Positions 35,718-37,488 of a stretch of 64,000 nt of DNA are shown here, in pieces. Position 1 is the stretch's first letter. Each line of letters starts with the position of its first letter. The notes under the pieces were generated by a model, which did not search any database, was not told the origin of the DNA, and was given only the letters and a program-made list of their open reading frames with translations. The position numbers and the translations under genes are program-made. The stretch lies in assembly GCF_055900595.2 (NCBI RefSeq), contig NZ_CM148325.1; one strand, 5' to 3'.

Positions 35718-36374
<657 letters not shown>

Positions 36375-36457
36375 TGCTTTCAGCCCGCGTTATCGCGGGC
36401 TTCCTGCCTGTAATCTTTCCTTATTCATCGCTGATACGGTGCTAAAGAGTAACCAAT

Positions 36458-36482
36458 AAATGGTATTTAAAATGCAAATTAT
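36458..36482 (+). promoter_or_regulatory. candidate NsrR operator upstream of yeaR-yoaG
   Basis: imperfect palindrome aatGGTATTTAAAATGCAaat resembling the NsrR 11-1-11 consensus, about 65 bp upstream of yeaR. Confidence 0.4.
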
Positions 36483-36546
36483 CAGGCGTACCCTGAAACG
36501 GCTGAAATAAACTGTTTTCAGCACATTCATCGAAGGAGGGAAAAGG

Positions 36547-36906
36547 ATGCTGCAAATCCCACAGAATTATATTCATACGCGCTCAACGCCTTTCTGGAAT
36601 AAACAAACTGCGCCTGCCGGAATATTCGAACGTCATCTTGATAAAGGAACGCGCCCGGGGGTTTACCCACGCCTTTCCGTTATGCATGGGGCGGTCAAAT
36701 ATCTCGGCTACGCTGATGAACACAGTACAGAGCCTGATCAAGTGATCCTTATCGAAGCGGGGCAGTTTGCGGTGTTCCCTCCAGAAAAGTGGCACAACAT
36801 TGAAGCCATGACTGACGACACTTATTTCAACATTGACTTCTTCGTTGCTCCTGAAGTCCTGATGGAAGGCGCGCAACAACGAAAAGTCATTCATAACGGG
36901 AAATGA
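36547..36906 (+). CDS. yeaR: DUF1971 protein YeaR
   Basis: 119-aa ORF MLQIPQNYIHTRSTPFWNKQTAPAGIFERHLDKGTRPG... Confidence 0.85.
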   Translation: MLQIPQNYIHTRSTPFWNKQTAPAGIFERHLDKGTRPGVYPRLSVMHGAVKYLGYADEHSTEPDQVILIEAGQFAVFPPEKWHNIEAMTDDTYFNIDFFVAPEVLMEGAQQRKVIHNGK

Positions 36907-36909
36907 ATC

Positions 36910-37092
36910 ATGGGCAAAGCAACGTATACCGTGACCGTCACCAATAACAGTAATGGCGTTTCTGTCGATTATGAAACAGAGACGCCGATGACTTTGCTGG
37001 TGCCAGAAGTGGCGGCTGAAGTGATAAAAGATCTGGTGAATACCGTGCGTTCTTATGACACGGAAAACGAACATGATGTTTGTGGTTGGTAA
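36910..37092 (+). CDS. yoaG: DUF1869 small protein YoaG
   Basis: 60-aa ORF MGKATYTVTVTNNSNGVSVDYETETPMTLLVPEVAAEVIKDL..., 3 nt after yeaR stop. Confidence 0.85.
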   Translation: MGKATYTVTVTNNSNGVSVDYETETPMTLLVPEVAAEVIKDLVNTVRSYDTENEHDVCGW

Positions 37093-37239
37093 TTATCACT
37101 GATCGTAGATGGCGCAATTTCTGCGCCATCGCAAAAAAATCCTCCGTGATGCTTGTCACAAATCTTGCCCTCCTGATGTTGTGCTATGCTTTTTATCAGC
37201 GACTAACCCGCTAATGCAAAACAGATAAGTGAGGAAACA

Positions 37240-37488
37240 ATGGGCATTCTGTCATGGATTATTTTTGGGCTTATTGCCGGTATTCTGGCGAAGTGGATCA
37301 TGCCAGGTAAAGATGGTGGTGGATTCTTTATGACTATCCTGCTGGGGATAGTCGGTGCCGTAGTCGGCGGATGGATCAGCACGCTGTTTGGCTTTGGTAA
37401 AGTCGATGGCTTCAATTTTGGCAGCTTCGTGGTTGCCGTTATTGGTGCGATTGTCGTGCTGTTTATCTACAGAAAGATCAAAAGTTAA
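37240..37488 (+). CDS. yeaQ: GlsB/YeaQ/YmgE-family small membrane protein YeaQ
   Basis: 82-aa ORF MGILSWIIFGLIAGILAKWIMPGKDGGGFFMTILLGIVGAVVGGW... Confidence 0.88.
   Translation: MGILSWIIFGLIAGILAKWIMPGKDGGGFFMTILLGIVGAVVGGWISTLFGFGKVDGFNFGSFVVAVIGAIVVLFIYRKIKS

Follow-up and report, generated by a model that had tools for sequence, protein, structure and literature searches.

The question raised by the locus examined here is whether an imperfect palindrome upstream of yeaR-yoaG is an operator for NsrR, and how it lies relative to the promoter of these genes. NsrR is a repressor of the Rrf2 family that carries an iron-sulfur cluster and senses nitric oxide; nitrosylation of the cluster by NO relieves repression. 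The window analyzed is a stretch of 64,000 nt of E. coli DNA in which leuE, yeaR and yoaG follow in order. A sequence-only reading of this window had placed an NsrR-like operator at 36458-36482 (AAATGGTATTTAAAATGCAAATTAT as read), on the grounds of a core resembling the NsrR consensus and of its location in the expected promoter position. It had suggested as checks a matrix scan for NsrR and NarL sites and a comparison with the K-12 yeaR promoter.

Over 7 kb the region is 97.5% identical to, and collinear with, K-12 dmlA-dmlR-leuE-yeaR-yoaG-yeaQ. The ORF upstream of the spacer, leuE (35736-36374), has 212 codons. Downstream, yeaR (36547-36906, plus strand) encodes a 119-aa DUF1971 protein, an assignment based on the ORF and on the way RefSeq annotates K-12 and genomes with 100% identity. 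The second gene of the operon, yoaG (36910-37092, plus strand), encodes a 60-aa DUF1869 protein and was assigned from its ORF and its collinearity with K-12 yoaG (b1796). A Shine-Dalgarno sequence for yeaR, AAGGAGG, was read from the sequence at 36533-36539 (plus strand) and is kept in all orthologs. When a 401-bp query over the spacer was searched against complete E. coli genomes, 5,419 of 5,426 matched, with the flanks there annotated as leuE and yeaR. At 36382-36401, 8 nt past the leuE stop codon, there is a G+C-rich hairpin with a perfect stem of 8 bp, AGCCCGCG-ttat-CGCGGGCT, which is kept in all E. coli compared and has no clean T-run; it is probably the leuE terminator.

The palindrome itself proved to be real. 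Within the 172-bp intergenic spacer between leuE and yeaR, the 23-mer AAATGGTATTTAAAATGCAAATT at 36458-36480 (no strand assigned) forms an imperfect inverted repeat of 11-1-11 architecture, AAATGGTATTT-A-AAATGCAAATT, with its symmetry axis at A36469 and 8 of 11 arm positions self-complementary. The core, ATTTAAAAT, occupies 36465-36473. Sixteen of 22 positions agree with the idealized NsrR consensus AAGATGCATTT-N-AAATGCATCTT. The interval first proposed for this element therefore holds for 36458-36480; its last two bases, AT at 36481-36482, fall outside the 11-1-11 unit. The element ends 66 nt before the yeaR ATG at 36547, a distance of 78 nt when counted from its center.

A symmetrized log-odds matrix for NsrR was built from 16 distinct ChIP-seq-positive 11-1-11 sites (Table 4 of PMC5320621), with the yeaR site excluded. 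Scanned with this matrix, the yeaR site scored 20.7 bits and ranked first of the 63,978 positions in the 64-kb window, against 10.8 bits for the runner-up, which bears out the NsrR half of the matrix check. Its two half-sites contributed 11.3 and 9.6 bits, the latter from the right half. At window composition, the tail probability of the score was 5e-8 per position, equivalent to 0.003 expected hits per window; at the composition of the spacer it was 1.5e-7. The score was not attained once, either in 200 dinucleotide-preserving shuffles of the window or when the 172-bp spacer was shuffled 20,000 times. These shuffles and composition-adjusted probabilities ruled out the palindrome as a chance event of AT-rich DNA. 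With the same matrix, bona fide NsrR sites span 12.8-30.9 bits, so that the yeaR site is mid-range. The ytfE, hcp and hmp operators share with it the 11-1-11 architecture, the A/T-rich center and the AA...TT ends; that of ytfE scores 30.9 bits as compared with 20.7 for yeaR.

The literature on this operon points in the same direction. The 23-mer is letter-for-letter the yeaR NsrR site listed for strain CFT073 (PMC5320621, Table 4), where it has a PatSer ln P of -17.05, beyond the authors' cut-off of -14.28, and stands 11th of 27 genome-wide sites. That study describes yeaR as a known NsrR target, for which it refers to Bodenmiller & Spiro 2006 and Lin et al. 2007, and reports yeaR (160-fold) and yoaG (168-fold) among the most induced genes in nitrate-grown anaerobic cultures (PMC5320621). 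NsrR ChIP-seq of aerobic CFT073 cultures gave no yeaR peak, which the authors suspect to be a false negative (PMC5320621). The comparative NsrR regulon paper of Rodionov 2005 makes no mention of yeaR. The nsrR gene lies outside the window, and its presence in this strain is presumed from the complete E. coli genomes, 5,425 of 5,426 of which carry it.

The location of the element relative to the promoter can be derived from the published NarL site. The yeaR NarL site given in the NarL cryo-EM study is TAACCAATAAATGGTA, centered at -43.5 and immediately ahead of a -35 element that is intrinsically weak, and its identity rests on cryo-EM, footprint and genetic data (PMC10853779). Phosphorylated NarL bound there activates yeaR independently of FNR via the alpha C-terminal domain (PMC10853779 for the site). 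An exact match to this 7-2-7 activator site is found in the window at 36450-36465 (no strand assigned), which corresponds to -51 to -36. Setting its center, 36457.5, at -43.5 puts the putative transcription start at a G at 36501 (plus strand), in agreement with the G-initiated transcript of the cryo-EM scaffold (PMC10853779), and the operator consequently at -43 to -21, centered at -32. From this start, the predicted -10 hexamer is TACCCT at 36489-36494 (plus strand; -12 to -7). The predicted -35 hexamer, TTTAAA, is weak and lies at 36466-36471 (plus strand; -35 to -30); it was placed by allowing a 17-bp spacer before the -10 hexamer and by the adjacent upstream NarL site. In these derived coordinates the operator covers the entire -35 hexamer and the entire promoter-proximal NarL heptamer (36459-36465), which is inside the left NsrR half-site. 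The expected promoter position upstream of yeaR-yoaG is, more precisely, the core promoter.

Consensus searches were of little use at this promoter. For NarL, a scan of the window with TACYYMT-NN-AKRRGTA, allowing up to 2 mismatches, gave 4 matches against 3.0 expected and missed the published site. This site, arranged as TAACCAA-TA-AATGGTA, has mismatches at 4 of 14 consensus positions, and about 200 positions in the window match equally well; the consensus string is therefore useless here. The proposed matrix check came out positive for NsrR, with the top site of the window; for NarL, a plain consensus overlooks a structurally verified site. Similarly, a simple sigma-70 consensus scan of 36300-37300 detected no promoter, a result that fits a weak, activator-dependent promoter and is no argument against one. 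Overall, 36458-36480 is predicted to be the NsrR operator of the sigma-70 promoter of yeaR-yoaG, a reading to which we assign a probability of roughly 0.9.

From the presumed start site, the yeaR mRNA would begin with a 7-bp hairpin from +1 (36501-36522, GCUGAAA-N8-UUUCAGC), and the 49-nt leader has a folding z of -2.9 in single-sequence folds. Citrobacter and Salmonella yeaR leaders have a hairpin in the equivalent place with another stem (CAGCG...CGCUG), and Silvania has none. This 5'-terminal hairpin may be a 5' stabilizing stem-loop. Rfam yielded no match to 36300-37300 in an E-value search, and RNAalifold predicted no pairs on the MAFFT-aligned yeaR 5' untranslated regions, an alignment that was poor.

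Comparison with K-12, the other check suggested, gave a clear result: the window and K-12 are identical over the 56 bp of 36449-36504, the 23 operator positions included. With 20 differences, all of them outside this 56-bp core, the 250-nt bin that holds the promoter is the most diverged from K-12 in the 7 kb. K-12 differs only outside the site, in the spacer upstream of 36449 and at a few positions of the 5' untranslated region, where the window has a rare allele. Just upstream of the NarL site, the spacer at 36400-36447 is a rare allele with about 10 differences from K-12 in roughly 45 nt. CFT073 has the same 23-nt operator as K-12, and the gene order leuE-yeaR-yoaG is shared. Among the 5,426 complete E. 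coli genomes, a 44-bp core (36451-36494) had a megablast match in 5,098 and was identical in 4,938; the adjacent 44-bp spacer (36400-36443) had a megablast match in only 15.

Two variants of the promoter were observed within the species. In 295 of the 5,426 complete genomes (for example L005 and NC_013008.1), T is replaced by A at position 16 of the NsrR site (window 36473). This is the most informative position of the matrix, and the change lowers the score from 20.7 to 16.1 bits. Among the 40 such genomes listed, all those serotyped are O157:H7, including TW14359, ATCC 43888 and Show KS 470-1; the canonical T is present in at least one O157:H7 strain (PV15-279), as well as in the window. In E. 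coli N10 (L003, NZ_CM165902.1), GTACCCT in the -10 region (window 36488-36494) is changed to GAGCCCT, and the annotation gives yeaR as a truncated pseudogene; in this strain, decay of the operon seems to be under way.

A wider comparison drew on a single protein-seeded scan of species-representative genomes, which yielded 26 yeaR loci that could be used. These loci are from Escherichia spp., Citrobacter spp., Salmonella enterica subsp. arizonae and diarizonae, and Silvania. In all 26, the best match to the NsrR matrix within 1.1 kb was located 73-84 nt upstream of the yeaR ATG, with scores of 11.2-24.0 bits. Between genera the upstream spacer is unalignable; the conserved segment begins with the NarL site and ends with the -10 element. 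The NarL site is invariant in most orthologs, and the -10 region is kept as GCGTAMCCT across genera. In the Citrobacter sedlakii group and Silvania there are 6-8 substitutions relative to the E. coli site, yet the scores are 21-23 bits; the same number of random substitutions gave 0-5 bits (p <= 0.001 each). In closely related orthologs this test of score retention was not significant (median p about 0.09-0.14). Conservation per position was correlated with the information content of the matrix (Spearman 0.52, p 0.01). In three Citrobacter sedlakii/amalonaticus-like loci (L013, L021 and L030, at about 600-631), the NarL/NsrR overlap has become TGCCCCTTTTGGTGTATTT; in these lineages the left NarL heptamer is nearer to consensus and the left NsrR half is TTGGTGTATTT. 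The overlapping NarL and NsrR sites seem to have evolved in concert there.

The promoter geometry also suggests another origin for the palindrome, namely that it is a by-product of the NarL heptamer and the A+T-rich weak -35 element and spacer, with NsrR acting indirectly or elsewhere. The NarL heptamer does occupy 36459-36465 and the -35 hexamer 36466-36471, and the left NsrR half-site is under NarL constraint too. Conservation spans -51 to -7, the entire core promoter, and takes in a GGCG before the -10 element that is no part of the operator; since conserved bases extend beyond the operator, conservation by itself is not specific to NsrR. The lack of a yeaR peak in the CFT073 ChIP-seq (PMC5320621) could be read in the same way. 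However, most of the right half-site (36470-36480) falls within the spacer between the -35 and -10 elements, where neither NarL nor sigma-70 requires a specific sequence, and nevertheless this half contributes its 9.6 bits. In this half, outside the NarL site, conservation runs parallel to the information content of the NsrR matrix (rho 0.67). In Silvania the right NarL heptamer is lost, but the NsrR match is improved to 23.1 bits, and the rest of the window never exceeds the runner-up score. We therefore consider a by-product of promoter architecture improbable.

Even less probable, in our estimate, is that the A+T-rich element is mainly a site for Fis or another nucleoid protein that damps the promoter in rich medium, its likeness to NsrR sites being secondary. 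In one study of Fis at the yeaR promoter, a Fis site reportedly overlaps the NarL site at -43.5. Fis sites are degenerate and would account neither for 20.7 bits against a specific 11-1-11 motif nor for an NsrR match kept through sequence turnover. Several proteins can share the same DNA, hence binding of NsrR remains compatible with that of Fis. Fis-dependent repression at the yeaR promoter is indicated by the title of one published study; Fis would be an additional occupant of the promoter and no rival to NsrR.

With 36458-36480 as the NsrR operator, a likely sequence of events can be proposed. Regulation by NsrR and NO, and NarL binding and activation, are taken from the literature; the present analysis contributes the sequence identity to sites already published, the score against the matrix, the promoter geometry and the conservation data. 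The geometry suggests steric occlusion and competition between NsrR and NarL. An NsrR dimer on -43 to -21 would lie over the weak -35 hexamer as well as over the NarL heptamer proximal to the promoter. Bound holo-NsrR would then block RNA polymerase by occluding sigma region 4 at -35, and would probably exclude phospho-NarL through a clash with the proximal NarL monomer. On nitrosylation of the NsrR cluster by NO, the repressor would leave the operator, and phospho-NarL, formed in response to the nitrate/nitrite signal, could recruit polymerase via the alpha C-terminal domain. A stronger version of this scheme, which we put forward as a tentative and rather doubtful possibility, is that the 8-bp overlap makes NsrR and NarL binding mutually exclusive, and that NsrR is mainly an anti-activator gating NarL, instead of acting solely as a block to polymerase, so that the promoter works as a nitrate AND NO gate. 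The T-to-A change at position 16 in the O157:H7 lineage might retune such an NsrR/NarL gate.

The yeaR operator differs from the canonical operators of ytfE, hcp and hmp in that its left half doubles as a NarL heptamer. On the activator side of the same promoter, the closest comparison is ogt: both yeaR and ogt are NarL-only promoters, FNR-independent and activated via the alpha C-terminal domain, but ogt requires two NarL sites whereas yeaR has a single 7-2-7 site at -43.5 abutting the -35 element.

The yeaR NsrR operator was already known and is intact and canonical in the present strain; in this respect there is nothing new. The true 23-bp operator could be located to the base from its letters alone. 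The dual-input promoter, responding to nitrate via NarL and to NO via NsrR, is intact here, which adds little new knowledge. The yeaR promoter is widely used as a part in biosensors of nitrate and inflammation. Modest additions are the footprint across genera and the variant operator of O157:H7, which could help in planning mutational studies of this promoter.
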